A stretch of 45,778 nt of DNA from a virus (lineage: Duplodnaviria > Caudoviricetes). The stretch is from IMG/VR virus record IMGVR_UViG_3300037422_000629, positions 1-45,778 of that record; one strand, given 5' to 3'. Positions 7,401-42,745 of this stretch are shown piece after piece (within the stretch, counting starts at the first letter, position 1; each line of letters starts with the position of its first letter). The notes beneath the pieces are model-generated. The model searched no databases, had not been told where the DNA came from, and saw nothing but the letters and a program-made list of their open reading frames with translations. The translations under genes were made by a program, and so were the position numbers.

Positions 7401-7949
7401 CTGTTGCTGTTCGGTTTTGAGTCTGCCGAAGGCCGAGAGAAACGTCTGAAAGCCCTGTTGCGCGTCCTGACTGGCAATCTGCGCGCCGATTTGGCTGCCG
7501 GCGCGCTTGCCGGTCTCCGCATCCAGGCCCTTGAACAACGATTTGACATTACCGATTTTTTGCGCCTCAACTACCTTTTTGGCAAACAGTTCGACGACTT
7601 GCGTGAGGCCGGTGAATTTGGCTTTGGCGGCTTCGGCCTCCGCGCCCGCCGCGCGGAGGCCTTCGCCGCTCTTTCGGGCCGCCGCGCCGCTGCCGTCGGC
7701 GACGCGCGCGAAACGCTGGTAGCTTTCAACCAACAGCGCTATGACGTCGTTGGCTCGCTCCCCGCCCGGTATTAGCCCCAGCAGGGTTTTAGCTACTTCG
7801 CCCAACGCGCGCGCCTGGCGCGTGGCAGCGGTAGTGGCTGCGTTCGCGCCCTGGGCGTAATCCCGGTTGGCTTTTTCGGCGCGTTTTAGCCCCGCGTCGT
7901 GCTGGCGCGTATCGCTGTCGAAGATAGTTGTTAAGCGTTGAAATTCCAC
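4437..7949 (-). CDS. Tape measure protein
   Basis: 1170 aa, Ala-rich and helical; C-terminal ATGGLI.GPG..TSD.L.ARLS.GEFVV motif; follows the tail chaperones. Confidence 0.93.
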   Translation of the reverse strand: MEFQRLTTIFDSDTRQHDAGLKRAEKANRDYAQGANAATTAATRQARALGEVAKTLLGLIPGGERANDVIALLVESYQRFARVADGSGAAARKSGEGLRAAGAEAEAAKAKFTGLTQVVELFAKKVVEAQKIGNVKSLFKGLDAETGKRAGSQIGAQIASQDAQQGFQTFLSAFGRLKTEQQQAAAATRLFGNEAKDLLPALRAAGGDAGKLAASLAPAAAGLETTAAGASGAGAALGAMGGPIGIAIAAAAALVVAEGVVIKTSYDLAAAAAEVINKQADFAAQSGLSIENMSALSVAAHKYNVDLKQVNDGLIQFANKAREAIGQGQKQQKEFAQFGVTAEEVLSNFDGSLEKVFRRLAEFPNGTQRATAAAKLFGEEGGRYISLLVERSGGDFRRFRQEAEALGLILGDANVRQARAFQDATRQLSAEWESFKLRVGAGVLPFIVAGLQSVKNTINELPGVTTFVTGALQGFLVTAILVPLLQIEAALTRVSRLLRDLRGIPAQGESSASRGFLNFANEAIKATKRKAGVFDDVDPALRGAGGGGRAPRAGGGESALQRAARQALQLAEVDLQRAQRLFAEKNTRYQQLYDAGLADLYRYIVLRQKATRDLFAQEQTTFAKERDLIEKSKLEKGEKAVRLAQLGEKEAAAKARADQEVLRLQLEYDERKYEATRRYAQGTIQLHEAMYRALALLNREAIEKGKKTNEEALNELFAEQQAILQGRLALLQADLGRLTINRTSGKPIPDNEQDAARVKEVKQKIEILNKEIEAEEIRHTGELRRARLADLKDAQDYSDALERITQETGDVVFGVRQRDIENERRQLSRRDELINIITGGNLRLINLEKDLALERELIRHESAVRQLEAQRARIQAEVANEQRRTELLQAIDGRIQAETLQAAQNVADIEAEANEKRLQQIETLGDRIQGQLSRIADNWRRGGFRAALAGMLEDFANFLQQLVFKALAAKVAEAILGRLGTGDNSGGGGGGFFSRLFGIVIGALAGGFGGGGRTTGANVISGSPRGLGGAAATGGLITGPGHDTSDNLLARLSPGEFVVRARAVRAIGLTALEQINRFGRLPALADGGLASFGERGPDVAYFPSPGYVFNADEPRGPVRGPRGDTTSNSTQVNNYTINLPPPRTGSYERPASRREAAETALAFLRGRGRR

Positions 7950-8004
7950 AGCTTACCCTTTGCTGTGGCGCGGGTCGGCGATACGCAAAAAAGCCAGCCC
8001 GGCC

Positions 8005-8310
8005 TCAAAAATCGAAGAAGTTGAAATCCACCGTCAACTGCGCCGCCTTGCCGTGCCGTCGGTAGAGTTCCGCGCTGGCTTGTCGGCGCGCGGCGATGAT
8101 TACCTGCGCTTCTTCCAGGCGATGCAGCGGCACGCCGTCCAGTTCCCACACGCGCACGCCTAAGAAGCGCGCTACGTCGTGTTCTAGGACGTAAGCGGGG
8201 AGTCTTCCGCCGCCGCCGGCTCCAAGGAGGTAGCGTCGGTAGTCCCGGAGGTCGTCGAACTGTTCGGCGTCGATGCGCCCGCTTCCTGGCTCGCGGGCGG
8301 CTCTTTTGGG
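8005..8310 (-). CDS. -1 frameshift extension of the tail chaperone (GT-like product 8729 to 8005, ~241 aa)
   Basis: Slippery heptamer C CCA AAA at 8310-8304 is in the zero frame. The -1 frame is open: RAAREPGSGRIDAEQFDDLRDYRRYLL...VARFLGVRVWELD...DFNFFDF* with stop at 8007-8005. Confidence 0.82.
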   Translation of the reverse strand, partial: PKRAAREPGSGRIDAEQFDDLRDYRRYLLGAGGGGRLPAYVLEHDVARFLGVRVWELDGVPLHRLEEAQVIIAARRQASAELYRRHGKAAQLTVDFNFFDF

Positions 8311-8729
8311 AGCGTGGCGCTCCGCATAAAGTCGAGCATGAACAGCAGCCGGTGAGTCGGTATGCGTTGCAGATTTTCCAGCGTCACCGGCAGAGGTTTA
8401 CCCGCCGCTGTGACATCCCACTCCTGCAAGGTCTCTGCCAGGACGCTGGCATACAATGTTTGCTGCGCCTCGTCGAGTTGTAACTCGAATTCCAGCAGCG
8501 TCATTTTGCTGGCCGTCGGCGACACGCCCTCAGCCAGGGCTTTTTGTTCCTCTTCGGCGCGCTTTTCGAGCGGTGCGAGGGTTTCTTTCACCCGCTCGAT
8601 GAATCGCCGTTGCCAGGCCCGCGTAAAAATATTGGCGTTCCAGGTCAGAGCGATTTCACCCAACCCCGGAATTTCGCATCGGTGCGTCACGGTGTCTTCG
8701 GCTTCATTTGTTAAGCGTCTCAATTCCAT
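8184..8729 (-). CDS. Tail assembly chaperone (G-like)
   Basis: Between tail tube and tape measure genes; L.EWDVT..G..LP.T.EN motif. Confidence 0.8.
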   Translation of the reverse strand: MELRRLTNEAEDTVTHRCEIPGLGEIALTWNANIFTRAWQRRFIERVKETLAPLEKRAEEEQKALAEGVSPTASKMTLLEFELQLDEAQQTLYASVLAETLQEWDVTAAGKPLPVTLENLQRIPTHRLLFMLDFMRSATLPKEPPASQEAGASTPNSSTTSGTTDATSLEPAAAEDSPLTS

Positions 8730-8782
8730 AAAATTTAAGATTGTTAAGTAACAGGTTCAAAACAAAGTGCCTCATTAACCCT

Positions 8783-8836
8783 GGCGTGAATCGTCAATCG
8801 TGAAGAGATGGTTCTTCACGATTGACGATTCACGCC
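8783..8836. repeat. Perfect 24-bp inverted repeat with 6-nt loop and heptamer periodicity
   Basis: GGCGTGAATCGTCAATCGTGAAGA-gatggt-TCTTCACGATTGACGATTCACGCC, downstream of the tail tube gene. Confidence 0.92.
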
Positions 8837-8904
8837 CAAAACTTGCCGGTTCACGTTATTTTGACTCCATTACTAAATGTTGATTGTCGAGTCGGCCTCG
8901 ACCT

Positions 8905-9897
8905 TTACAACGCGGAGAGGTCGTTGATGATTTCAAAGCTGTACCCGCGCCCCATCGTCGGGTCGTGGATGACGGCGAACTCGAACTGGTATTCATAGGG
9001 ACCGTCCTGGTCGGCCACTTCCGTCGCCTTCTCGAATTTGAGGGCGAAGTCGGCGCGGAAACGCTCCACGTCCGCGGCTGTGCCAACCGGGTTGCCCGTC
9101 GCCTGCACACGCACGAAGCGGGTCGGGAGGCCGGCTACCGACAGCGCGTCGTAGAGCGCGCGGCCTTGCGCGTTGTATTCCGCCGTGATGACGACCTTCG
9201 GCTCATGGGCTTTCTCAAACGGCTCGTCCCAGCTTGCTTGGCTGCTGTTGACGCACCACTTCTGGCCCAGTTCCGGCGGAATATCCACATCCACCTTCGA
9301 GACACAGGTCCAGCGCGTCGTGCCGATGCCGGCGAAGGTGGAGTCAATGTAAACGTCCAGGTTGGCAGGGCTGGCGGGCCGTTGGGCGATTTCCGTCGGA
9401 CTAGCGGTGAGGGTTACGCCGTTGTTGATGTTCTTGGCGAAGAGCGCGCCGCTGACCTGTACGTCCTCGCGCGTGACGCTCAACTTAAAGCCGTCAAACT
9501 GGCCGTAGGCGACTTGGATGGCCGCCGTTGCGTCGCCGCGCTGCAAGGTGTAGTTTTTGCGCGTCACGCTGCCGTGCGTAGCCGGGTTAAAAGTCCACTT
9601 ATAGGCCGCGCTGCCGCCGCTGGTCTCCACCGGCGCGGCGTAGGCCACCGCCCCGGCCAGCGGGTAGATAAGCGAGCCGAAGTTCAGCACGCCGTCCCAC
9701 TCGCCCTCCGACCATTCTTTCGTTTTGAGCATAGCCGTCGGAATCTTGGCCCCGCTGCTGCGAAATAACTTGCTCTCCTGCATGGGGCTGAAACGAATGG
9801 CGATGTCGTTCACGAGGCGATTGGCGGGAACGGAAGTGCCGGGCGTGCTTTCCACGCCCAACTGCGTGACGATGTTGACGTTGCTTCTGGTTGCCAT
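8905..9897 (-). CDS. Major tail tube protein
   Basis: N-terminal QLGVESTPGT.V, 330 aa, RBS AAGGAG, upstream of the chaperone and tape measure genes. Confidence 0.85.
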   Translation of the reverse strand: MATRSNVNIVTQLGVESTPGTSVPANRLVNDIAIRFSPMQESKLFRSSGAKIPTAMLKTKEWSEGEWDGVLNFGSLIYPLAGAVAYAAPVETSGGSAAYKWTFNPATHGSVTRKNYTLQRGDATAAIQVAYGQFDGFKLSVTREDVQVSGALFAKNINNGVTLTASPTEIAQRPASPANLDVYIDSTFAGIGTTRWTCVSKVDVDIPPELGQKWCVNSSQASWDEPFEKAHEPKVVITAEYNAQGRALYDALSVAGLPTRFVRVQATGNPVGTAADVERFRADFALKFEKATEVADQDGPYEYQFEFAVIHDPTMGRGYSFEIINDLSAL

Positions 9898-9909
9898 GAG
9901 AGTTGCTCC

Positions 9910-10407
9910 TTAATTGCTGAGTAAGGTCTCGACGCGGTAATAGCCGCCGAGTTGATAAATGGTTTTGGCGTCGTCCGCCGGTTGCGGCAACGAAAACTCC
10001 GCCGGCTGTTCGCGCCAGATATTGAATGAATAGCCGGGCGCTTGGGCATAACTGACCAGCCGCGCGCTGTGCAGCAGCGCATCGAGCGCGTCAGCCGCCG
10101 CCATAAATTCCGCGCTCACCGCGCCCGCTATGGTTTCCGTGAGCCGCACGCTCCACAGCGGGCGGGCGATGAACCGCTTCTTGCCCACGCCCATCAGGTC
10201 TTCGCCGGCGATGAATTGCGCCAAGACGTAAGGACGGGTTTCGGCCTGCGGGGCGCGGCGGAAGTAGATTCTGAATGCGCCGGAGGTGGAAATGTACGCG
10301 GCGAGCGTCGCGTAGGCGGCCAGGATTTCCGCCGCTTCGCCCGTTGGCTCTGTGGAAAGCCGCCTGACTATCGCCAGCCGTGCCGCGCTGAGTTCGTTGC
10401 CCGTCAT
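9910..10407 (-). CDS. Tail terminator/completion protein
   Basis: RIY...APQ....PYV motif; between the HK97 gp10-like gene and the tail tube gene. Confidence 0.7.
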   Translation of the reverse strand: MTGNELSAARLAIVRRLSTEPTGEAAEILAAYATLAAYISTSGAFRIYFRRAPQAETRPYVLAQFIAGEDLMGVGKKRFIARPLWSVRLTETIAGAVSAEFMAAADALDALLHSARLVSYAQAPGYSFNIWREQPAEFSLPQPADDAKTIYQLGGYYRVETLLSN

Positions 10408-10410
10408 TCA

Positions 10411-10701
10411 TTACCTCCTGCGCGCCGCCTCCACCGCCGGCATAAAGAACGGCTGGTCGGCCTCGACGAAGACCGCGTAATCCACCGCGCCGCCGCCGGC
10501 GCTCACCTCCGCGCTGCCGTCCGAGGGATGCGCTGCGACGGCGATGGAAGAGCGCAACGCGCCCGTTCTGACCGGACAGAGTTCGCGGGCGCGCGCGGCG
10601 GCCTCTTCCGCCGTCTCTGCGTTCAACCGGGCGGCCAGCCGTGCGGTTTCCCGCCGGACTTCGGCGGCCCGGTTGCCACTGCTGCGAATCGTCACGCCCA
10701 T
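10411..10701 (-). CDS. HK97 gp10-like neck/tail completion protein
   Basis: A...CPVRTGALRSSI, YA.FVE, QPFF.PA motifs; start taken at ATG 10701. Confidence 0.85.
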   Translation of the reverse strand: MGVTIRSSGNRAAEVRRETARLAARLNAETAEEAAARARELCPVRTGALRSSIAVAAHPSDGSAEVSAGGGAVDYAVFVEADQPFFMPAVEAARRR

Positions 10702-10708
10702 CCGCTCG

Positions 10709-11032
10709 TCAAGCCTCTTCTCCGCCGATGGTCTCTCCGGCTGCCGCGCCGCCGGCGTCTGTCGCAATGATGTCGCCGGCGGCCAGCGGCGCGCCTCGGA
10801 TGGCGCCGGACGCCGGCGACATCGGTTTGGCGATTCTCACTTCCACTTTCTCGCCGGCGGCCAGCGGCGCGTCATCCCCTTCGTCCACGTCGAGCCGCAG
10901 CGCCAAAACGTGCGGCCTATCCCCGTCGCCGCCGCCGAGCCGGACCTCAAAGAAGCCTGGCCCCGGGCTGACGCTCGTGACTGTGGCCTCAAATTTGGCA
11001 ATCATTTGATTTCTTTGCTTGCTCATAGCCAC
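10709..11032 (-). CDS. Hypothetical protein
   Basis: RBS GAGGAG; fills the gap in the structural operon. Confidence 0.6.
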   Translation of the reverse strand: MAMSKQRNQMIAKFEATVTSVSPGPGFFEVRLGGGDGDRPHVLALRLDVDEGDDAPLAAGEKVEVRIAKPMSPASGAIRGAPLAAGDIIATDAGGAAAGETIGGEEA

Positions 11033-11064
11033 TACTCCTCAATCGCCAGGTCAAAATTCATAAT

Positions 11065-11976
11065 TCATCGTAATTCAATCACACTGACATTGACGTTTGT
11101 AAACGTCGCCGTGCCGCCCGTCACCGCCGCTTGTTCGAGGTCAATCCAATAAGCTGTGCCGATGGTCAGCCCGGTGACAATCGCTTGGCGGCTAAACGGG
11201 TTTACTACCGTTCCGGTGGCTGAACTGGAGACGACGCAACTGCCGCCGATAGTTCCGCCGACTTGAGTTCCGGTCAAAGCCGCGCCGTTGGCCGGCGCGG
11301 CTCCCGTGCCGTAACGAATCGCCCCTTTGTAGCCGTTGTCGCCAGTTCCGTTAGTCCCTTGCCCCGAAATTATTATCAGGGCGACGCCTGATGTTTTCGG
11401 GGTGAAAGCAACGGCTAACCCGGCGTGAACTCCGGTCGTCGAAGTCGTGCCAGTGGGATTGGCTCCGGTTGACGAGCCGTAATTCGCCGCCCGGCAATAA
11501 CTCACGCATCTGATGACATCAGAGCCTTCCGAGACTATACCCATCACATCGCCGGCAGAGGTTTTGACGTTTTGCGCGTTGGGCAAAATCAAGGTCGCAC
11601 TGTGCGTCAACGTCAACGCGCCGGCGAATTTCAACCAGGCGACGCGCCCGGCTTTGTCGGTGGCGAAATCAATATCGGTAATCGTCGTCGTGCCGGTTAC
11701 GTTAAAGTAACCGCCCTCGCCTAACGAGATGGCCCCGGCAGAAGCGATGTCTGAGCCTTGCTCCCACAGCGCAGCTAAGGCGTCAGGCGTTACGGTTTTG
11801 CTGGTGTTCGTGCCGATCAGCACATCGGTTGTTGATGCTAAAGAAGCGCCGCCAATCGTTTCTATCTTGTCAAAGACCGCGTTTTTTGTGGGTGCGTTTA
11901 GATCCCCGTCCCAACCCGCGCCATATGCGGCGTCGGAAATCGGAAGTTGTCTGACGGCCACCAAGGTTTCTGCCAT
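11065..11976 (-). CDS. Putative fibre/decoration structural protein
   Basis: G/T/S-rich; AS..DV..GT...K.VTP..L fibre motif; DIASA..I.LG...YF.VTGTTTI; beta-rich C-terminal domain. Confidence 0.65.
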   Translation of the reverse strand: MAETLVAVRQLPISDAAYGAGWDGDLNAPTKNAVFDKIETIGGASLASTTDVLIGTNTSKTVTPDALAALWEQGSDIASAGAISLGEGGYFNVTGTTTITDIDFATDKAGRVAWLKFAGALTLTHSATLILPNAQNVKTSAGDVMGIVSEGSDVIRCVSYCRAANYGSSTGANPTGTTSTTGVHAGLAVAFTPKTSGVALIIISGQGTNGTGDNGYKGAIRYGTGAAPANGAALTGTQVGGTIGGSCVVSSSATGTVVNPFSRQAIVTGLTIGTAYWIDLEQAAVTGGTATFTNVNVSVIELR

Positions 11977-16300: not shown

Positions 16301-17312
16301 TTAATCGCCGCGGCGTAAGCAGTGCGGGCTAAACCAAATTCGTTCTTTGGCGGCATTGTTATTCGTGCCGTCTCGTCGCTGCTTGCCGTAGCCGCCTCTT
16401 GTTTTCCAGGCCCACTCTATCCAGGAGGAAGGCATTTTGTGTTCGCCGTCGTAGCCGCATAGGGCGATTCTCAGCAATTGGATTATCCCCGTTGGCAACT
16501 GCCCATTGACGGACGAGGTGCGCTACCTGGTCGCAATCAACCCTGTATAAATCCCTGTCGCGTTTTGCCGTATCCGCATATGGCGGGTCCAGAAACACGC
16601 CGCAAATCCCGTATTTGAACGTCGCCGTCGGGCCGCAGACGCGCTCCCAATCGCCGCAGCAAATACGCACATCACGTAAGCGGTTTTGGAGCTCCCGCAT
16701 TGTTTGTAGCAAGTGTGCACGCCGCTTCGCGCACTGGTCTAAATCTCCCAAGTGCGGGAGTTGGCGGTTGATGCCCTGCCCCCTGTTTAAGTGCGGGCGC
16801 GCCCGCCAAACACCGCCAACTTGCGATTTTCCAGTCTTGACCAGCAAACCATCCACAACGCGCCAAGGGCCTTTTCCGCTACACCAGCCAGAACCAATCC
16901 AGGCGCAAATGCCCCACAGCCACCAACCGGCAATCTTGGCGTCGAAAAAGTCAGGGTCGCCTTCCAGTTGGGCTTGCAGTGAATCTTTGCGCTGCACTAG
17001 CCAGGCGTGGCGGGCGTGCAAGTCGTTTTCAAAAATCGGATTATCCGCCCACTTCGCCACCGCGTCCGGTTCGCTCTGGACGGCGCGCCAGAAGTTCGCA
17101 ATCAGACCGTCGGCGTCATTGATGGTTTCGGCGCGCAACTTTTTGTGCCAGGCTGGACGCGCCAAGATTGTCGCAGCGCTGCCGGCGAAGGGCTCAACGT
17201 AACTCGCTACGTCACCGAACCGCGCCCACACTTCCGGCGCGGCAACGCCCTTGCCGCCGAAGTACGGGAAGGGCGCTTTAAGCGCCGCGCCGGGCGTAGA
17301 TTGTTTATCCAT
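16301..17312 (-). pseudogene. D12/Dam-like DNA adenine methyltransferase with a +1 frameshift at ~16478
   Basis: PFPYFGGK, YVEPFAGS, ETIND, FLDPPY motifs; the C-terminus LLRIALCGYDGEH...ERIWFSPHCL is in another frame; span of 1012 bp is 3n+1. Confidence 0.85.
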
Positions 17313-26987: not shown

Positions 26988-28274
26988 TTACTGCGTAAAA
27001 TTGTAGTTGATGACGCCCGTCACCTTAACCGGCTGGCCCGAAAGTAGGGTGGGCGAAAACCGCGCGCCCTGCGCCGCCGATACAGCCGCCGCTTGCAGCA
27101 ACGGGTGGCCGGACACGGCACGGGCCGAAATGACGCGCCCCTGCTCGTCAATCGTCACCTGCACGACCACCGTGCCGGAAGCGCGGGCGGCCTTGGCGAT
27201 GGCCGGATACGCCGGCTTGGGTAAACTGACGGCCTTGCCGTTCAACACGCCGCCGTCAAGCGGGACTGTTGGTCTGGGTGTCGGTGCCGATTCAGGTGTC
27301 GGCGGCGGTTTGTGCAGTGTTATGGCGCTACTTATTTCACCGCTCTCAAATGACGGCGCATCCGATGGCGCGGGTTCGACCTCTGTGAACGCCGTTTCGG
27401 GAATTTGCGCGGGCGACGCAATCCGCTCATACACTTCGCCGGTCAGGAAATTGTACAACCACACTTCTTGCAGCTCGAAAAGCAGGGCGTTGAGGTGGTT
27501 GTGCCTATCGTAAGGGTCGTCAATTTCCGGCGTCTCATTATCGTAATCGTGGGCCGCGGGCCGCTCCGCCAGATAGCCTATGCATAACACTCTCAAGCTG
27601 CTCTTGGCGGCCCTGGCCTGTTGAGGGCCGCACCGGAGAGTAAACATAGCCCGGCGATTACCCAGACTGTCGCTCAACTCCGGGAAGGCCCTCAAACTTT
27701 CGCCGCTGAACCCTAACACATAGTCGTCGTTGCGATAGACCTGCACACGGGCCTGGCGGTTAAAGGCCGTGCGGCCAACGTAAGCGGCGACGCGCTTGCT
27801 CAGGGAAACCCATTGCAAAATCTGACAATCTTTACACGGCGCATCGTGCAGGCGGTATTCCCATTGCCAACTAAAGTTGATTTCCAAGAGGCCCAAATCG
27901 GCGTGATAAGTCTCGGTTAATTGGTTCTGGTCGCCGTTCCCGAAGGCGAAGGCCAACAGGTCGCCATAGCGCACCTTCCCGTAAGCGGCTTGCCGGCGCA
28001 ACTTGTCCAAGCGGCTTTGATACTCCGCCGTCGTCTCGTACTTATCCTTTTGCCACTTGGCTTGTTGTTTGATTAAGGCCGACCAGAGGCCGGCCAGGTC
28101 ATGGCCTAAGTATCGTTTGGGCAGGTTTTCGGCGGAGGTGTCGAAGGGTTGAGTGTCAAAGGCCGGCGCAGGCGGTTTCTGCGCCGGGCGGCGCGGTTTT
28201 TGAGCGCACACCACAGCGGCCAGCGCCAGGCAACATAACCAAGAGGTTAGCCGTTTTATGAATTGCGCCCTCAT
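26988..28274 (-). CDS. Secreted protein with C-terminal TonB domain
   Basis: Signal-peptide-like N-terminus, Pro-rich linker, GGVLNGKA.SLPKPAYP..AKA...SGTVVVQVTIDE.G.V.SA..VSGHPLL..AA..AA..ARF.P. Confidence 0.88.
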   Translation of the reverse strand: MRAQFIKRLTSWLCCLALAAVVCAQKPRRPAQKPPAPAFDTQPFDTSAENLPKRYLGHDLAGLWSALIKQQAKWQKDKYETTAEYQSRLDKLRRQAAYGKVRYGDLLAFAFGNGDQNQLTETYHADLGLLEINFSWQWEYRLHDAPCKDCQILQWVSLSKRVAAYVGRTAFNRQARVQVYRNDDYVLGFSGESLRAFPELSDSLGNRRAMFTLRCGPQQARAAKSSLRVLCIGYLAERPAAHDYDNETPEIDDPYDRHNHLNALLFELQEVWLYNFLTGEVYERIASPAQIPETAFTEVEPAPSDAPSFESGEISSAITLHKPPPTPESAPTPRPTVPLDGGVLNGKAVSLPKPAYPAIAKAARASGTVVVQVTIDEQGRVISARAVSGHPLLQAAAVSAAQGARFSPTLLSGQPVKVTGVINYNFTQ

Positions 28275-35360: not shown

Positions 35361-36135
35361 AAGCCCGACGCTACGCCAGGTGCGGAAACTAATAAAACAG
35401 GCACAGGACTCCGCGCCGGCTTCGATTGCCGCTTGCGAGCCGTGCGGCGACACCGGCTGGCGGTTCATTGAGCGCGACGGGCGACGCGGCAATGTCGAAT
35501 GCGATTGCCGCCGGGAGCGCCGCATCAAGGCGGCGCTGGCGCGGGTCGAACGCCGGTTTTGGGTGAACGGCCAACCGCCGCGCCTGGCGGCGTTGCAACC
35601 CCGCGCCGATTTGGTGAGCGATAAATCCCGCGCCGCGTTTATTGCCGAACGGCAAGCCGCCGCTATCGGCCAAATGCGCCGCGAACCGCTGGCAAGTTAC
35701 TTTTTCGCCGGGCCGCGTGACGCTGGCAAGACGCACCTGGCGTATGCGCTCTACGTTCACGCAGTAGAAAACACGAATCGCCGCGTGTGGGCCGGAACGG
35801 TAGCCGACTTGCTGAACCAATACCAAAAAATGCAAGGCAGCGAACCGGGCGCCGACGGCAAGCCTTTCGTGGCGGAGGTGTTGCCCGAAAATCTACGCGG
35901 TTACGAGTGGACAATTTTGCTTGATGAAGTGGCCTACGTTCGCCCGACGGCATTCCGGCACGAGAAGTTTTTTGACCTCATAGACGCCATTTGGAAGAAC
36001 AGCCATCAGTTACTTTGCACGTCGAATCTCACGCTTGACGCATTAAGCGCAAAGTGGGATGCGATTTCCGGCGGGAACGGCGAAGCGATTATCAAGCGCT
36101 TGACCGCCGACGCTTACCGGGTGGGATTTTTTTAG
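35257..36135 (+). CDS. DnaC/IstB-like helicase loader ATPase
   Basis: C..CGDTGW...CDC Zn motif, GPRDAGKTHLA Walker A, ILLDE Walker B, TSNL; exact start uncertain. Confidence 0.88.
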   Translation: MPLTLVQPSPEAEATDNPLAAKSSSLPGKLSAICESPTLRQVRKLIKQAQDSAPASIAACEPCGDTGWRFIERDGRRGNVECDCRRERRIKAALARVERRFWVNGQPPRLAALQPRADLVSDKSRAAFIAERQAAAIGQMRREPLASYFFAGPRDAGKTHLAYALYVHAVENTNRRVWAGTVADLLNQYQKMQGSEPGADGKPFVAEVLPENLRGYEWTILLDEVAYVRPTAFRHEKFFDLIDAIWKNSHQLLCTSNLTLDALSAKWDAISGGNGEAIIKRLTADAYRVGFF

Positions 36136-36513
36136 ACCTTTTGATAAGTAAGATGGTCACAAGTGGACTAATACGAAGTCGGACAAGGCCATCCCCATCT
36201 GCGCCGGTGCGCTGCCGGCGGCGTGGCTGATGACGCCGACAATTTGACCAGCGCCGATTGGGTGTGGCTTGAGTTGAGCGACGACGAAGCGGCGGATTAT
36301 AAACGCGAGGGCTTTTTGCTGATTCAGGTGGAGGTTGTCAACCTCACGCCGTAAATTGTCAAAGTGGAGGTTTTCGTTCATGGGCTGTACACGCCCGATG
36401 ACGTCCCTAAGCCGCGCGCCTGGATGACGACACCGGAGCGGCAACAATGGCTTAGTTCAACCTGGGAGTCGCGCGAATGGCGCGGCATGGTGGGAGTCGG
36501 TTTTTGGGGGAAG

Positions 36514-36951
36514 ATGATGAGCCAAGCCTTAACGGTCAGTGAATTGCTTTGGCGGGCCGCCGGCGCGCCGGCCCTGCCGTCGGACGAGCGGGCCGGACTT
36601 TGCTGTCTGTGCGGCGCGGAGTCTGCCGGCGCGCCGTTTGCCCGATGGGTGAAGGATTCTTTCACGAATTGGGATTTGCTCCACAGCGGCACGATTGCCT
36701 GCCGCGCATGTCTGTTTTGCGCCGAGGAGCAGAGCCGCCTGTTGCAATCGCTAACGGGCCGGGAGAAACCGCAAAAGATGCGCACCTACTCGCATTTCAT
36801 CGTCGGGGGTAGGTGGCGAGCGCTCACAAAAGGCGAAAAGCCAGAGATGCGCCGCCTTCTCGCGCAGAACCCGGAGGTGGCGGTCATCAGCGTCACGGGG
36901 CAAAAGCACCTGTTGTTTCGCGCCCGCGCGGGCTGGTGGCAGTTCGAGGAG
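36514..36951 (+). pseudogene. csf1: Csf1 (type IV Cas8-like) N-terminal fragment
   Basis: CCLCG...F..W...SFT.WD.L.....C..C...R.YSH....W..L.K......L......I...GQKHL.FRA....QFEE; the frame then runs into low-complexity sequence. Confidence 0.65.
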
Positions 36952-37052
36952 ACGGCACAGGCACGCTCTCCGGCTTTCGCCCCTCCTACTGGCTGCCAGC
37001 CAACCAAACCCGCTGCCGCCTGCCGGAAGCCTACACCGACCCCGCCGCCTGA
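36951..37052 (+). pseudogene. csf3: Csf3 (type IV Cas5-like) C-terminal fragment
   Basis: A different frame reads GFRPSYWLPANQTRCRLP...*, matching the G.RP.YW...NQ..C tail typical of Csf3. Confidence 0.55.
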
Positions 37053-37071
37053 TTCCTCGCGGCGTAAAATT

Positions 37072-37135
37072 TTTCAGGAAATTTATAAATTTCCTGAAAC
37101 CATTTGGCATATTCTTACGTAGATATATATAGATT
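37072..37135 (+). promoter_or_regulatory. Perfect 28-bp palindrome and AT-rich promoter of the inserted cassette
   Basis: TTTCAGGAAATTTA|TAAATTTCCTGAAA at 37072-37099, then TTGGCA and a TATA-rich -10 region. Confidence 0.7.
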
Positions 37136-37181
37136 GGAGATAACCAGTCCAGTAGCATCAGTTACAGAAGGGAGAGAAAAT

Positions 37182-37624
37182 ATGGTAGAGCAAAATATAA
37201 CCTATGTTCATGGCGCACAGGGGCAGCTATATGCGGAGGTAGCGAGCGCAGAAATAGTTGCCCCTGCGTCACTTTTCGGGCGGACTTGGTATTTTGAGTA
37301 CGCCAAATTTGGCACGCAAACCTTGCATCTTTGGCAACTCGGAGGCGGTCTGCACAACCCGCAGGAGATTGAGGCTCTGGCCCTGGCCAAACCGTCACTG
37401 ACCGCCAAAATATCTACGGCGGCGGGGATTGGTTCGTCGTCGGGCCGGAGTGGATTTGGTACGTCCAGAATAACGGTTCGGACGGCGGGGACTGGGCCGC
37501 CAACAACGTCAGGACGGGGGGCGCGGGCGCCATGGGCTGGCGCGTGCCGCACACGCCGGACCTGGAGGCCCGGATTAACGGTTTTGAAGCCGTTTTGGAG
37601 TCGGAAAAAGATGAGCGCCCATAG
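37182..37624 (+). pseudogene. Hypothetical phage protein split by a 1-bp frameshift at ~37373-37400
   Basis: ATG 37182 with RBS GGAG. The protein-like continuation TVTDRQNIYGGGDWFVVGPEWIWYVQNNGSDGGDWAANNVRTGGAGAMGWRVP is in the -1 frame and stops at 37622-37624. Confidence 0.7.
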
Positions 37625-38582
37625 CCTGAGCTACCGCGAACTGCTCGACCTCGTGCCACAAGTAGAGCCGGAATTATGGCGGGTGGTTTACCCCCGCCGT
37701 TATAAAAAGGCCGACGCCTGGGGCCTGCCGCAACTGGCGTCGCTCGCCGCCGCCACCGGCGTCAAGCTCCTGCGCGATGCGCCGCAGGATGCTTCGGTAG
37801 TGGACAGAAACGTCTATCGCGTGGCGGCGGGGCTGGCCGCGCACCAGTTTCCGGCCTTTTTCCCCACGCGCGAGTTGTGCGAGGCGGCCCTGGCCAGCGC
37901 GCCGCCGGAAGGTCTGCGCTGGAACGCGATGCGTCTGCCCTACGAGGCAGCCACTTTCTGCCTGCCCGCCGGCTGGCTTCAACACTCGACTGCCGGCGCA
38001 GTGGATTTTATCTCCTATGCCCGCACACGCGCCGGCGACGAATTTGTCTTTCCCCTGCCCGGGTGCCCGCGCTTCGCCCTGTTAGACGACGCCTTTACCG
38101 TCGTCACGGCGCTGCGCCGGAGGCGGAATTTCCCTATCTTGGAGAGCACTCTCAGCGCGGCGCAGCGCCCCTACGCCAACACCGATGACCTCCTCATGGG
38201 CGAATACCGGCCCGAGGGTCTGTTCATACGAGCGCTCGACGATGCCGACGCGCGCTGCCTGAAGATGTGCGAGGCGTTAATTTTGCGCCTGCTGCTGGCG
38301 ATGCAGGCGCGGCCTGCGCTGGTGGAGCGGGGCCGCGCTGCCGGAAGGCACAAAAAGTTGGGCGTGGAATTGTGGACACCCACCGTCGTCGGGCGCAACT
38401 ACCGCGTGGCGCGCTCTGCCGGCAGTGCGGCGGCGGGCGTGAGCGCCCGCCCGCGTATGCACTGGCGGCGCGGCCACTTCCGTCAACAGGCCGTCGGGCC
38501 GCGCGGCGGCGGCGCGCACAAAACTATCTGGCTCGAACCTACGCTCGTTGCCGCCGGTGGCGACCAAGAAAGAACACTATGA
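37611..38582 (+). CDS. Hypothetical protein with C-terminal HWRRGH.R.Q..G...K..W..P motif
   Basis: RBS GGAG and ATG 37611; 323 aa; the motif is recognisable from uncharacterised phage/MGE proteins. Confidence 0.75.
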   Translation: MSAHSLSYRELLDLVPQVEPELWRVVYPRRYKKADAWGLPQLASLAAATGVKLLRDAPQDASVVDRNVYRVAAGLAAHQFPAFFPTRELCEAALASAPPEGLRWNAMRLPYEAATFCLPAGWLQHSTAGAVDFISYARTRAGDEFVFPLPGCPRFALLDDAFTVVTALRRRRNFPILESTLSAAQRPYANTDDLLMGEYRPEGLFIRALDDADARCLKMCEALILRLLLAMQARPALVERGRAAGRHKKLGVELWTPTVVGRNYRVARSAGSAAAGVSARPRMHWRRGHFRQQAVGPRGGGAHKTIWLEPTLVAAGGDQERTL

Positions 38583-39019
38583 ATCGCATTATTATCGAAA
38601 ATGACGGCCCTCGCATCCGGGCCGCCAACTACTGGCAAACGGAGTGGGCCCAATACGGGGCCTTCTACCTGAGCCTTAATGCCGGCGCTTTTCGCCTGCT
38701 CGTGCCGCGCGCGCAGGAGGCCTTGTTGGACGAGTTCCGCACGGGGCGCGAAGTGCTGATTTCGCGCGGGCCTTGGCCGGCGGCGCAGCGGGCGGACGCA
38801 CTCGAAATTCTGTTTGACGATAACACGGACGACCCGTTCGCGCTACATCTGGGCCTGGAGCAGATAGACCGCCTGCCGCGGGCGACGGACGCAGGCCGCG
38901 AAGTTATTTTCAGCGCCTGGACATTTCGCGGCGGCGAGCCGCGCCTGAGCTACCAGGCTCCGTGTTTTTATCGCCTCGTGCCGCGCTTGCCATGTCTTCA
39001 GCCGCGCGGGAAAGCCTAA
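38579..39019 (+). CDS. Conserved MGE hypothetical protein (146 aa)
   Basis: ATGA overlap; I.NDG..I...NYW..E.A..G.FYLS.NAGAFRLLVP. Confidence 0.75.
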   Translation: MNRIIIENDGPRIRAANYWQTEWAQYGAFYLSLNAGAFRLLVPRAQEALLDEFRTGREVLISRGPWPAAQRADALEILFDDNTDDPFALHLGLEQIDRLPRATDAGREVIFSAWTFRGGEPRLSYQAPCFYRLVPRLPCLQPRGKA

Positions 39020-39052
39020 CGGGGCGCACTCTGCGCTGAAAGCGGTGAACCT

Positions 39053-39283
39053 ATGCCAAAAAAAAAGGTCGTGCCGGTCTTGCACACGCCGGCTGAGATA
39101 GAAGAGTTGAAACGCGAACTGCCTACGGGCGCTTCGCCCTCGAACTATTACCGTAGCCTGCGCGGACTGCCGCCGCTCACGCCCGGCCCGCCGAAAGGCA
39201 GTCAACATACAAAAGGCAAACGCTGGAAACAGAAGCAAAACCGGCGTTGGCGGCTGGCGGCGGAAGAAGCGGAGGAGCAATGA
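39053..39283 (+). CDS. Small basic protein, possibly ribbon-helix-helix-like
   Basis: beta-helix-helix pattern (VVPVLHT..EIEELK...S.SNYYR); ATGA overlap with the next gene. Confidence 0.5.
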   Translation: MPKKKVVPVLHTPAEIEELKRELPTGASPSNYYRSLRGLPPLTPGPPKGSQHTKGKRWKQKQNRRWRLAAEEAEEQ

Positions 39284-40290
39284 AACGAGCGATAATTACC
39301 ACCAGCCGCGCGCAGAAACTGGCAGCCATCAATGCGTTGAATGCGTTGCACCGGAAGTGTCTGGTCATTTTGCCGCGCGCCGAGCAATCCGTGTTACAAG
39401 ACTTGGCCGTGCCGCACGAGCATCTTTTCCTCGAGCAGATGAACAAGGCCGTCCTGTTTCTCGATTTTCAAACTAAAGTCAACCCGGACGTAATGGTTGT
39501 GGTCTATAACGCTTTGCGTTACAGCACGCCCAACAACACAAAATACAACCGTATTTACCAACTGACAGCTACCGCGCAGAACGTCATGGTGTGCGACTCG
39601 TTTCCCTTCGTCTTTGACCGGCGCAATCTGTGGGTGCTGCAAAAAATACTGGGCGTGGCGCGCTATCACCACAAGCAATTCTATGACGACGGTTTTTTTA
39701 TCGAGCGCGAGGGCCGGCGGCTGGCGGCCAACAGCCTCGAAGCGGTTTACCCGGACTTGCGCCCTTACCTGGAGACCGATTTTGCGCCCCTGCGTTACGA
39801 ACTGCACGCATGGCAACACACAGCCGAGGAGCAATCCCTATATGAAAGCAAAAAACGGCGTGCCATTTACGAAAAAAACTACCCCAAAGTGCGGGTTGTG
39901 ACCTCCCTGCAAGGCTTCGCCAATCGTTTCGAGAGTAAGTTCGCCGCTTTGTGCCAGGCGCTGGCCGGGATGGGCGGCCGGCCCTTAATTTTCTACAACT
40001 GGGAGGAAGGCATCCGCCAGCATCGCCCGCGCGTGCCGCTCACAGCGGATTTAGTAAGCTACCATCAGGAGACCCCGAACTGCGCCAGCGCAGTCGTCTT
40101 CTACGAGACGATTATCAACCAGAAAATACATTTCTACGATAAGTTAGCGCAGTACGCCGCCGCCCCGTTGCACCTGTTTCTTAATCCGAAGTTGGGCGCC
40201 GACCGGCTGGCCGCCAATGCCACCATCCAAATACTGGAAGAGTTGAACGCCTTCGCCGCGTTCGACTGGAAGGGGATTGCCAACCCATGA
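39280..40290 (+). CDS. Degenerate SF2 helicase-like protein (no intact Walker motifs)
   Basis: RBS GGAGG, 336 aa, alternating beta/alpha pattern, VVVYNALR where a DExx motif would be expected; coupled to ibrA; family call tentative. Confidence 0.45.
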   Translation: MKRAIITTSRAQKLAAINALNALHRKCLVILPRAEQSVLQDLAVPHEHLFLEQMNKAVLFLDFQTKVNPDVMVVVYNALRYSTPNNTKYNRIYQLTATAQNVMVCDSFPFVFDRRNLWVLQKILGVARYHHKQFYDDGFFIEREGRRLAANSLEAVYPDLRPYLETDFAPLRYELHAWQHTAEEQSLYESKKRRAIYEKNYPKVRVVTSLQGFANRFESKFAALCQALAGMGGRPLIFYNWEEGIRQHRPRVPLTADLVSYHQETPNCASAVVFYETIINQKIHFYDKLAQYAAAPLHLFLNPKLGADRLAANATIQILEELNAFAAFDWKGIANP

Positions 40291-41441
40291 ACCAGACGGA
40301 CGCCCAACAACGTCGGCTACTGAAAGCCAAGGTTTACAATCCGCGCCTCAACGTCTATGAGGCCGCGCTTGAACGGCTGAACTTCGTGTTTGACCGGCAC
40401 GAGAAAATCATCGTCTCGCTGTCGGGGGGCAAAGACAGCGTAACGATGCTCTATCTGGCGTTGGAAATCGCTCGCCAGCGCAACCGGAAGATTTACGCTT
40501 TCTGGCTTGACCAGGAGTTCGAGTACAACTCCACATTTTTGCTTATCGAAGAGCTAATGAAATTGGAGTATGTCGTGCCTTTGTGGTTTCAGGTTCACGG
40601 CATTCTGCCGACGGCCATCTCGCACGAACAATACTGGCTGCAACCCTGGAATCCAGCGGAGCGTGGGCGCTGGCTGCGGGCCTACAAGCGCGTCAGCATC
40701 AAGGAAATCACCTGGCCGCACGACGTGCCGTATTCATTTCCCGCCGAGCACAAAATGGGCTTCTACGGCCTGATGAAATGCATGGAGCAAATGTTCCGTG
40801 CCGAAGATGCGGCGCATTTGATAGGATTGCGCGCTGAAGAGAGCCTCAACCGCTTCCGTGCCGTTACGCGACACCCTGGCGTGGAGGGCGTCCCATGGAG
40901 CACGCGCAACCGCTGGGGCGGCGTCAAATACTATCCCCTCTACGACTGGACGTTCCACGACCTGTGGGTGTATGCCGGGCGCAACCATCTGCGCTACAAC
41001 AAAATGTACGACTATTTCTGGAAAAAGGGTTATTCCTTGAAAGAAATGCGTATCAGTAGCCTGATGAACCGCAAGGCGTTCGGCTGTCTGGCGGACATAC
41101 AGGAGTTTGAGCCGCGACTGTACGACGCCCTGCTGGAACGCGCCCAAGGCGTCAAAACGGCCAGCCTCTACGCTGACGAAGGGCGGATGTACCAGGCGCG
41201 CAAATTACCCCGCGCCTTCGACACTTGGGCCGCCTATCGTGATTTTTTACTGGTGACGCTGCCCGACCGCAGACACGCGGAGATTTTCCGCGAACGCTTT
41301 GCCCAGCAACTCGACAACGAATACGTCGCGCGGCAACAGGTCGCTCAGATTCAAATCCACGACCTAACTAATTCGCGCAAAATTGACAACGCGCCGGACC
41401 CGGCAATAAAGAGGAAACAACAATGGATGGACGAATTGTAG
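40287..41441 (+). CDS. ibrA: IbrA-like PAPS reductase/CysH-family protein
   Basis: NVYEAA.ERL...F......VS.SGGKDS PP-loop, DQE.EY, IGLRAEESLNR, YP.YDW...D.W, YN..YD, MR.S. Confidence 0.9.
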   Translation: MNQTDAQQRRLLKAKVYNPRLNVYEAALERLNFVFDRHEKIIVSLSGGKDSVTMLYLALEIARQRNRKIYAFWLDQEFEYNSTFLLIEELMKLEYVVPLWFQVHGILPTAISHEQYWLQPWNPAERGRWLRAYKRVSIKEITWPHDVPYSFPAEHKMGFYGLMKCMEQMFRAEDAAHLIGLRAEESLNRFRAVTRHPGVEGVPWSTRNRWGGVKYYPLYDWTFHDLWVYAGRNHLRYNKMYDYFWKKGYSLKEMRISSLMNRKAFGCLADIQEFEPRLYDALLERAQGVKTASLYADEGRMYQARKLPRAFDTWAAYRDFLLVTLPDRRHAEIFRERFAQQLDNEYVARQQVAQIQIHDLTNSRKIDNAPDPAIKRKQQWMDEL

Positions 41442-42106
41442 AGGCTCTGGCCGTGCTGACCACGGCGATTGAGGCGGCGCCCGACGTGGACGCGCAGATT
41501 GATTTGCTCAACTTTATTCGCGGGCAGCTGCACGCAGTGTCCCCGTTGCGCCATCACCCGGTGGATTTGGTGGTGTGGGAGCGCGCGGCTAACCTCGAGG
41601 CAAACGACTACAATCCCAATCACGTTGACCGGCGCAACATGGAGTTGCTGCGCCACTCCATCCGCGAGGATGGCTACACTATGCCCATCGTCACCAGCGA
41701 GGAGCAAATCCCAGCGGAGGCCGGCGGCGCGCCGCGCGCGGCTATCAAGATTGTTGACGGTTATCACCGGCGGAAGGCCGAACGCAGCGATAACCTCATC
41801 AGCCGTTCAACTTACGGGCGCATCCCGCGCACCCAGATTCGCAACGAAAAACGCGACCTCAAATCCCGCATGGCAAGCACCGTCCGGCACAACCGGGCGC
41901 GCGGCGTGCACGGCGTGGAACCGATGAGTTATCTGGTCGTGGAGTTGGTGCAGTTAGGCTGGTCGGACGCCCAAATTGCCCTTCACCTGGGCATGGAGGC
42001 GGACGAAGTGCTGCGCCTCAAACAGGTGAGCGGCATCGCCGAAATCTTCCAACATCTGGAGTACACCGCGTCATGGACTTTCCAGGAACTCGACGCTTCC
42101 GGCTGA
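41423..42106 (+). CDS. ibrB: IbrB-like ParB/Srx-domain protein
   Basis: HPVD.V.W......ANDYNPN.V...ELL..SI..DGYT.PIV, IVDG.HR, R.ASTVRHNRARG.H, LGM..DEVLRLKQ..G. Confidence 0.9.
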   Translation: MDGRIVEALAVLTTAIEAAPDVDAQIDLLNFIRGQLHAVSPLRHHPVDLVVWERAANLEANDYNPNHVDRRNMELLRHSIREDGYTMPIVTSEEQIPAEAGGAPRAAIKIVDGYHRRKAERSDNLISRSTYGRIPRTQIRNEKRDLKSRMASTVRHNRARGVHGVEPMSYLVVELVQLGWSDAQIALHLGMEADEVLRLKQVSGIAEIFQHLEYTASWTFQELDASG

Positions 42107-42206
42107 ACTGCGCGGCGCGCCGGTGCGCTCGGTTATCAGCGCGGCCCGCGCCGGGCATTCCCCAAGACATGATTTAACGATTCATGCCCCGGCACGACGT
42201 ATGGTC

Positions 42207-42443
42207 TCATTCAGCTTCAAGCATTAGCGGCGACTCATCCTTTCTTAATAAATCATGCAACTCGGATAATCGCTCCGAGTTGCCGAAAAATTCCCGGTCC
42301 AGTTCTACTAAACGCGCTTGAACCATCTGCGCCTGCTGTTGCAAGGCGGCGTATTCCGCTTTTACGGCCTCGTTACGAGACTGAATATAGGCGATACGCT
42401 CCGCAAGCCGAGTCTGCAACGGTTTTTCAACTTCCTGCGTCAT
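42207..42443 (-). CDS. Small coiled-coil protein (possible fibre chaperone)
   Basis: Heptad pattern; last gene of the tail operon. Confidence 0.6.
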   Translation of the reverse strand: MTQEVEKPLQTRLAERIAYIQSRNEAVKAEYAALQQQAQMVQARLVELDREFFGNSERLSELHDLLRKDESPLMLEAE

Positions 42444-42745
42444 TGTGTCAATGCCATTGCCGTCACTTGAATCTGAGTCACTAAGTCGGGTTGTGCCGCT
42501 ACTAGAGCGTCAAACTCCGCATCACGAAACTCACGCACCTGAACGTTGCCCAGAGGCAAAGCTCCCGCCTCGAACGCCTCAACAGAGGCGTAAACTGCGC
42601 GGCTGACGCGAATCAATTTATCACTCGTCCGCACAGTAAATTCACCCAAAATAAACGCCGCTTCTGGGTACGTCGCTTGTGTCACTGGGTCGGTGTAAGC
42701 TTCAATTACATGCGCGTAATTGTTAATGTCTTTTATGTTTGCCAT
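42440..42745 (-). CDS. Hypothetical tail-associated protein
   Basis: RBS GGGAG; directly after the fibre gene. Confidence 0.6.
   Translation of the reverse strand: MANIKDINNYAHVIEAYTDPVTQATYPEAAFILGEFTVRTSDKLIRVSRAVYASVEAFEAGALPLGNVQVREFRDAEFDALVAAQPDLVTQIQVTAMALTQ

Follow-up and report, generated by a model that had tools for sequence, protein, structure and literature searches.

An ATPase-dead SNF2-fold gene, ibrA and ibrB form a conserved phage module adjoining either an SNF2 helicase or type IV-B csf genes

IbrA and IbrB are known from an E. coli prophage (IbrAB), the E. coli chromosome (YbdN/YbdM), Flavobacterium phages 6H and FCL-2, and HeimV2; in each case, a protein combining PAPS_reduct (3'-phosphoadenosine-5'-phosphosulfate, PAPS, reductase) and DUF3440 domains is followed by a ParB-like protein. 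Two other groups of systems come close: subtype IV-B of the CRISPR-Cas systems, which gathers csf1, cas11, csf2, csf3 and a cysH-like gene, has no array and is described as helicase-free; and the Dnd, Ssp and BREX type 4 systems, which share with IbrAB a PP-loop enzyme (DndC, SspD or BrxP) and a ParB/Srx protein (DndB). Here, we describe three genes (the triad) of IMG/VR virus record IMGVR_UViG_3300037422_000629 (Duplodnaviria; Caudoviricetes), whose 45,778 nt were analysed in full and are called the window. The triad has the gene order of the known IbrA/IbrB pairs, with about 30–39% identity among the matches listed; unlike them, the clade to which the window belongs adds, immediately 5' of ibrA, a gene for an SNF2-fold protein devoid of ATPase motifs (the “dead helicase”), plus either an active SNF2 helicase or type IV-B genes as a partner. 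This is a real conserved module joining the known IbrAB with the known type IV-B systems, of which we found no description in print.

The consulted passages of the IbrAB literature, such as PMC8813620 and PMC9068703, mention neither the dead SNF2 gene nor an SNF2 or type IV-B partner, and ParB is absent from the type IV passages, whose supplements could list such neighbours. Likewise, no link between IbrAB and SNF2 or type IV-B was found in the parts available of a literature that included PMC8175902, PMC7038947, 10.1101/270033, PMC10848311 and PMC4541368, and in which subscription journals are thinly covered. We tentatively read the triad as a conserved phage module that may modify nucleic acid with ATP, by adenylation or otherwise, with an exchangeable partner for engaging its target, and that would help the phage against host defence or rivals; we hold this quite possible and prefer it to the alternatives discussed below.

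The three genes lie on the + strand and overlap. They code for a 336-aa ATPase-dead SWI2/SNF2-fold protein (39280–40290, from fold prediction, profile alignment and motif counts), a 384-aa PP-loop protein of the IbrA/YbdN family (PAPS_reduct plus DUF3440) with an SGGKDS motif (40287–41441, from Pfam and PHROG) and a 227-aa ParB/Srx protein of the IbrB/YbdM family with DGYHR and HNRARG motifs (41423–42106, from phrog_2159 and ParB in PDB). An earlier note, made from the sequence alone, had described three intact overlapping open reading frames (ORFs) with SGGKDS and DG.HR/HNRARG motifs, about 2.2 kb after a csf relic; all are indeed present without interruption, and 2228 nt separate the triad from the end of the relic's csf3-like tail, at 37052. 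When the note spoke of a triad “outliving the Cas genes”, this holds for the intactness of the genes and not for a demonstrated activity.

The 336-aa protein has no match in Pfam, NCBIfam, PHROG or PADLOC, and a PDB sequence search returned one match, which was judged to be due to chance. Its AlphaFold2 model, built on an alignment of 23 sequences, has a predicted local distance difference test score of 94; Foldseek recovers from it the two-lobed SNF2 core, the best match being the SWI2/SNF2 core 1z63 (E = 1.2e-9; template modelling (TM) score of 0.67 at most), and TM scores to SNF2 clusters of the ESM Atlas are 0.79–0.80. Aligned by hhalign with the phage SNF2 helicase encoded beside a relative, the dead-helicase family profile covers 270 columns (probability 96.4, E = 1.2e-9). 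Walker A and DExx motifs occur in none of the 35 family members from loci and none of the 54 in the family alignment; the neighbouring SNF2 proteins have both in 33 cases out of 33. The “helicase-like” label of the earlier note is right as to the fold, with its two lobes, and has to be amended as to the motor: judged by its motifs, the protein is an ATPase-dead SNF2 paralogue, whose fold suggests that it may bind duplex DNA. An inactive SWI2/SNF2 domain is likewise found in DndH (PMC10853773, in the passages available). Close relatives are rare: four proteins at 90% clustering (window included), 23 representatives, and, on contigs, one viral and two metagenome relatives, one of which repeats locus L002, the closest relative of the window. 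Searches of cultured phages matched neither a dead-helicase relative nor the csf2 of L002. Wherever found, the dead helicase lies immediately 5' of IbrA, with one piece of a split gene as the sole exception.

IbrA matches PAPS_reduct (E = 3e-12) and DUF3440 (E = 3e-9) in Pfam, both above cut-off, as well as phrog_2302 (E = 1e-71), and its homologues are widespread (210 phage and 714 plasmid records). Among the 33 proteins of the dead-helicase clade, the PP-loop SGGKDS, D75/E77, R182/E185/R189, YPxxDW and R255 are conserved at 94% or more. No cysteine is invariant; neither CxxC nor ECG[LI] occurs in any of the 33, and the cysteine-richest column has C in 20 of them and Val in the window. ECG is the C-terminal catalytic cysteine motif of CysH. 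By sequence, the nearest solved relatives are FAD synthase, CysD and PAPS reductase, the first two being adenylyltransferases, and IbrA would fit an adenylating enzyme lacking the sulfur chemistry of DndC.

This lack of CxxC and of the PAPS-reductase motif argues against two readings at once. In the first, IbrA would act like DndC or SspD and, with host IscS, place sulfur in the DNA backbone; the PP-loop fold is common to all, PADLOC gives a weak DndC match (E = 2e-4) and a ParB-like DndB also belongs to Dnd systems (PMC12839542, as far as the accessible text goes). However, the portion available of PMC10853773 ascribes to DndC both a 4Fe-4S centre and a cysteine dyad, while the phage-carried IbrA has no cysteine dyad or Fe-S motif; its best cysteine column is far from invariant, and it scores 15.4 bits with the DndC model against a cut-off of 290. 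DndD, DndE and SspBC found no match among the neighbours scanned. We regard phosphorothioation as improbable, and of the DndC analogy put forward in the earlier note only the PP-loop fold survives. The second reading, an auxiliary PAPS reductase aiding host sulfate assimilation, has the Pfam and PHROG names on its side; with ECG absent, 27.6 bits in the cysH model against a cut-off of 165 and neighbours that handle DNA, it is hardly credible.

IbrB matches the ParB-like phrog_2159 (E = 2e-55), and its family profile matches solved ParB in PDB (E = 1.9e-7). NxYNPN and DGxHR are each found in 147 of the 149 homologues, NxARGxH in 144, and the alignment points to a likely C-terminal helix-turn-helix. 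The gene lies near IbrA in 147 of 150 loci. The window IbrB is a long form, whose best matches after L002 fall outside the dead-helicase clade (45%), a pattern hinting at gene exchange.

To survey the neighbourhoods, loci were drawn from viral, genome and metagenome scans, two large scans covering 8/64 and 10/64 parts; as the best 80 of 235 and the best 80 of 582 were used from these, the sample leans to relatives of the window. Twelve loci were excluded (L002/L018 duplicates, one annotated plasmid stretch and four loci found with a csf2 query), leaving 174, in 171 of which IbrA measured 280 aa or more; these formed 150 clusters at 90% identity, window included. Two partner sets came out: an SNF2 helicase with partner genes of its own, or csf1-3 with cysH. 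Among the 33 dead-helicase loci, 20 have SNF2, 7 csf (counting the window, scored as csf-linked via its relic), 6 neither and 0 both; among the 117 loci without the dead helicase, 103 have neither, 11 SNF2, 2 csf and 1 (L113) both. The active SNF2 helicase in the place of csf is, thus, the commoner arrangement (20/33), which the earlier note had overlooked. When restricted to the 19 well-flanked dead-helicase loci (out of 71 well-flanked loci), the counts are 12 SNF2, 6 csf, 1 neither and 0 both (Fisher p = 2.6e-4); well-flanked loci with the dead helicase also have csf more often than those without it (6/19 versus 2/52, p = 0.004). Neither p value takes the tree into account. The two partner sets do not co-occur in this clade.

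Six dead-helicase loci besides the window lie in or against type IV-B operons, as the earlier note had anticipated in proposing that the triad can travel with a type IV effector. PADLOC confirmed the csf calls for 21 of 22 proteins, plus 3 of 3 in L002, and a separate cysH is present in eight of the nine csf loci other than the window. L002, whose triad proteins are 48%, 72% and 62% identical to those of the window, has the order csf1-csf2-dead helicase-IbrA-IbrB-cysH-csf3; relatives such as L002, L036 and L041 combine intact csf sets and cysH with the triad. In L002, L035, L036, L041, L056, L126 and L135, the module is embedded in the operon, with csf genes on both sides or with csf on one side and cysH on the other; it touches or overlaps csf or cysH in seven of the nine csf loci other than the window. 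In contrast with the helicase-free description of subtype IV-B, these variants carry a dead helicase. Two gene families travel only with SNF2, at 15 and 7 loci (L113 among them); SNF2 and its partner genes are absent from all seven dead-helicase csf loci. A small methylase-like family is found at 14 loci with both partner types (it is absent from the window), and a GNAT gene accompanies several loci.

Some loci showed further peculiarities. A long csf2 was seen in L002 (5697–6926), L135 (5093–6316), L035, L056, L066 and L113; since the one in L135 matches Cas11 at its N-terminus (E = 2e-8), Cas11-Cas7 fusions appear, from sequence, to occur in IbrAB-linked type IV-B loci. L043 holds a tandem pair of dead helicase-IbrA-IbrB triads (6224–11068), and second IbrA copies occur in L004 (5825–8998) and L034.

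We then placed all 47 labelled loci and 35 of the 103 unlabelled ones in an IbrA tree of 82 rows. The dead-helicase loci form a single branch (33 rows, Shimodaira–Hasegawa-like approximate likelihood ratio test 98), and csf linkage requires 9 changes on the tree. The csf2 genes of the nine other csf loci are unrelated (at most 36.5% identity, median 27.5%, 28 of 36 pairs aligned), and, therefore, the pairing of triad and csf arose repeatedly. A tree-aware test of 23 loci of the clade, for which the flank rule was relaxed, found five independent pairs, 4.4 concordant and 0 discordant (p = 0.0625). An earlier independent-pairs test (7/8 concordant, p = 0.016) was set aside as partly circular, its input being only loci with SNF2 or csf. 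A search of whole records for csf2 found it in none of 27 (22 SNF2-linked and 5 without a partner; completeness was 90% or more in 8) and in none of four more, with L002 as positive control. Conversely, an SNF2 profile run against eight csf records, mostly fragments and in part without a positive control, gave two weak matches (E = 3.7e-16 and 1.9e-5), far below the scores of module SNF2 proteins.

One may ask whether the region is simply a cargo hot spot, in which triad and type IV-B operon would be accessory units unconnected with each other that settle in one variable region of phage genomes, csf displacing the SNF2 genes. Gene order differs among csf loci, with csf on the opposite strand in L066; the majority of IbrA loci (103/150) have no partner; four unrelated ORFs separate relic and triad in the window; and the tree-aware p is just 0.0625. 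Against this, the module stands within the csf operon at seven loci, with unrelated csf2 lineages, and seven dead-helicase csf loci out of seven are without SNF2 and its partner genes. We find the hot spot rather unlikely.

In the mechanism that we prefer, that of a nucleic-acid-modifying module with an exchangeable partner, IbrA would adenylate a nucleic-acid substrate at the expense of ATP and IbrB would bind nucleotide and DNA, while the dead helicase would grip duplex DNA and couple both proteins to the partner. The latter would deliver the enzymes to their target, SNF2 by translocation and type IV-B by its Csf-RNA filament, and the mark may shield phage DNA from host defence or disable a rival element. 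A narrower version, in which type IV-B Csf is a swap-in targeting arm, its RNA-bound Cas7 filament replacing the SNF2 motor and docking, by way of the dead SNF2 adaptor, onto the PP-loop and ParB enzymes, which would write a sulfur-free DNA mark of an undescribed kind, seems doubtful to us.

Several observations weigh against this mechanism. L113, which has no dead helicase, has both SNF2 and csf; and since dead helicase, SNF2 and csf are all missing from 103 of the 150 IbrA loci, IbrAB can in general do without a partner. By the tree-aware test, with its few pairs, partner exclusivity is no more than suggestive. Just one of the eight csf records is at least 90% complete, and it has a distant 750-aa SNF2 nearby (the match at E = 3.7e-16). 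In E. coli, ybdNM belongs to the chromosome and is linked with a citrate regulator, according to the consulted part of PMC9068703. Finally, most type IV-B loci are probably without IbrAB: when the survey was started from csf2, 46 plasmids matched, and, of three plasmid csf loci viewed, those of Thermococcus nautili and Rhodococcus jostii have no IbrAB annotated. The third, chosen because its csf/IbrAB overlap was already known, is plasmid NZ_CP135527.1 of the cultured haloarchaeon Halomontanus rarus (L186, 54536–61781), where csf genes are followed by IbrA, IbrB, GNAT and cysH on a single strand; this arrangement speaks for the mechanism.

In a sample of 401 genomes of the phylum of L018, we found one IbrA locus (the seed itself) and one true csf2, on a contig of 2.4 kb, which is too little sequence for a judgement; three further csf2 matches were type III RAMP-like genes and were dropped.

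IbrAB might also be a regulator or a modifier of protein or RNA, adenylating either of these or activating prophage transcription while bound to DNA, with the helicase pair remodelling protein-DNA complexes. Prophage transcriptional regulators is how IbrA and IbrB are labelled in the passages available from PMC8813620, type IV-B Csf assembles on heterogeneous RNA according to those of PMC8175902, and IbrA has weak matches to the tRNA-modifying TtcA and TilS. However, duplex DNA is the substrate suggested by the recurring methylase-like and GNAT neighbours and by the presence of two SNF2-fold proteins. As for the regulator label, the original IbrAB study reportedly described a genetic effect on prophage gene expression, and not biochemistry. 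A regulator or a protein/RNA modifier is, in our opinion, not the likely answer.

Turning back to the module as it stands in the window, its type IV-B partner is a relic, since csf2 and cysH are missing. What is left is the 5' two thirds of csf1 (type IV Cas8-like; 36514–36950, +; PADLOC typeIV_Cas8, E = 8.7e-15, profile positions 5–129 of 227), whose likeness to intact Csf1 stops after WWQFEE, near 36950, and the probable 3' end of csf3, out of frame with csf1 (36951–37052, +; typeIV_Cas5 profile 197–219 of 222, E = 0.036). In an alignment, this tail corresponds to the C-terminal RPxYW motif of seven Csf3 proteins; it is statistically weak, two chance matches elsewhere in the window scoring better; a deletion probably joined csf1 out of frame to the end of csf3. 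When the entire genome was searched in six frames, csf2, a separate cysH, SNF2 and GNAT were all missing; the cysH profile matches only IbrA in the window, and Cas11 profiles had no match among eight local proteins scanned. No regular repeat family of a CRISPR array is present in 36000–42500, and no Rfam match in the window.

A contig from sequencing run X1 covers the csf junction (36401–37236) with zero differences, which disfavours an assembly artefact, though X1 may be the source sample. In run X2, the first 366 bases of record 11, a 962-nt contig, align to 36922–37281 and the remaining 600 nt or so are unlike the window; at 36938–36950, this contig differs by 2 substitutions and 5 of the listed insertions. 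It may be an undeleted allele of a related strain and may carry an intact csf3.

With csf deleted and no SNF2, the window is an exception in its clade, L060 being the only well-flanked locus without a partner. Because 18 of the 19 well-flanked dead-helicase loci, the window with its relic among them, have one partner set, the intact triad of the window looks like a probably recent orphan of the csf deletion, in a run of anti-defence genes, and the suggestion of the earlier note that the triad may work without a type IV effector therefore stays undemonstrated.

The interval between relic and triad is taken up by four unrelated ORFs, all on the + strand, for which no homologue was found among the loci retrieved (direct queries covered three, and neighbour clustering linked no window gene). 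A perfect AT-rich 28-bp palindrome of two 14-nt arms with no spacer (37072–37099; repeat search, 100% complementary) lies 5' of this accessory gene run and is a possible operator; a promoter scan gave 1 site versus 2.3 expected. The first ORF (37182–37625), which the sequence assigns to no family, leads in-frame into the next one; from about 37410 on, another frame resembles protein more closely, and a possible frameshift here is also found in run X1. Next comes an AcrVA2-like protein (37611–38582), a context gene and not part of the conserved module, with a feature score of 0.98 to PF26125 clusters of the ESM Atlas (TM 0.64). None of the Pfam, NCBIfam, PHROG and PADLOC scans picked it up. AcrVA2 itself acts as an anti-CRISPR (10.1101/2022.11.29.518452, in the part consulted). 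The last two ORFs, of 146 aa (38579–39019) and 76 aa (39053–39283, overlapping the start codon of the dead helicase), have no Pfam, NCBIfam or PHROG match. The AcrVA2-like gene and the palindrome fit an anti-defence region, without thereby showing the triad itself to be anti-defence.

The window is an entire record and a single contig, with a 232-bp direct repeat at both termini, and so the genome is probably complete and circular. Library matches to integrase, RecT, HU and a DnaC-like loader, together with terminase, capsid and tail genes read from the translations, make it a temperate phage. The region is listed in three metagenome runs, all freshwater, two of them holding more than 90% of the sampled words; no RNA data set is among the listed holders. 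Elsewhere, a D12-class adenine methyltransferase gene (16359–17312, −; E = 3e-6) has an apparent frameshift at its 3' end, and, between repressor and integrase, a gene at 26988–28274 (−) codes for a protein that looks secreted and carries a TonB C-terminal domain (E = 3e-17), which is unusual as phage cargo.

For the function of array-less type IV-B systems, cysH is the only clue in the literature passages available. The repeated exchange of SNF2 for Csf beside one triad leads to the hypothesis that Csf may serve a modification machine as its engagement arm, and SNF2-type and csf-type loci make matched natural pairs. The window is a broken example, for which the intact L002, L036 and L041 would be better test material. 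The module also offers a way into IbrAB, a pair that is widespread in phages and plasmids and still goes under the label of a regulator or of sulfur metabolism.

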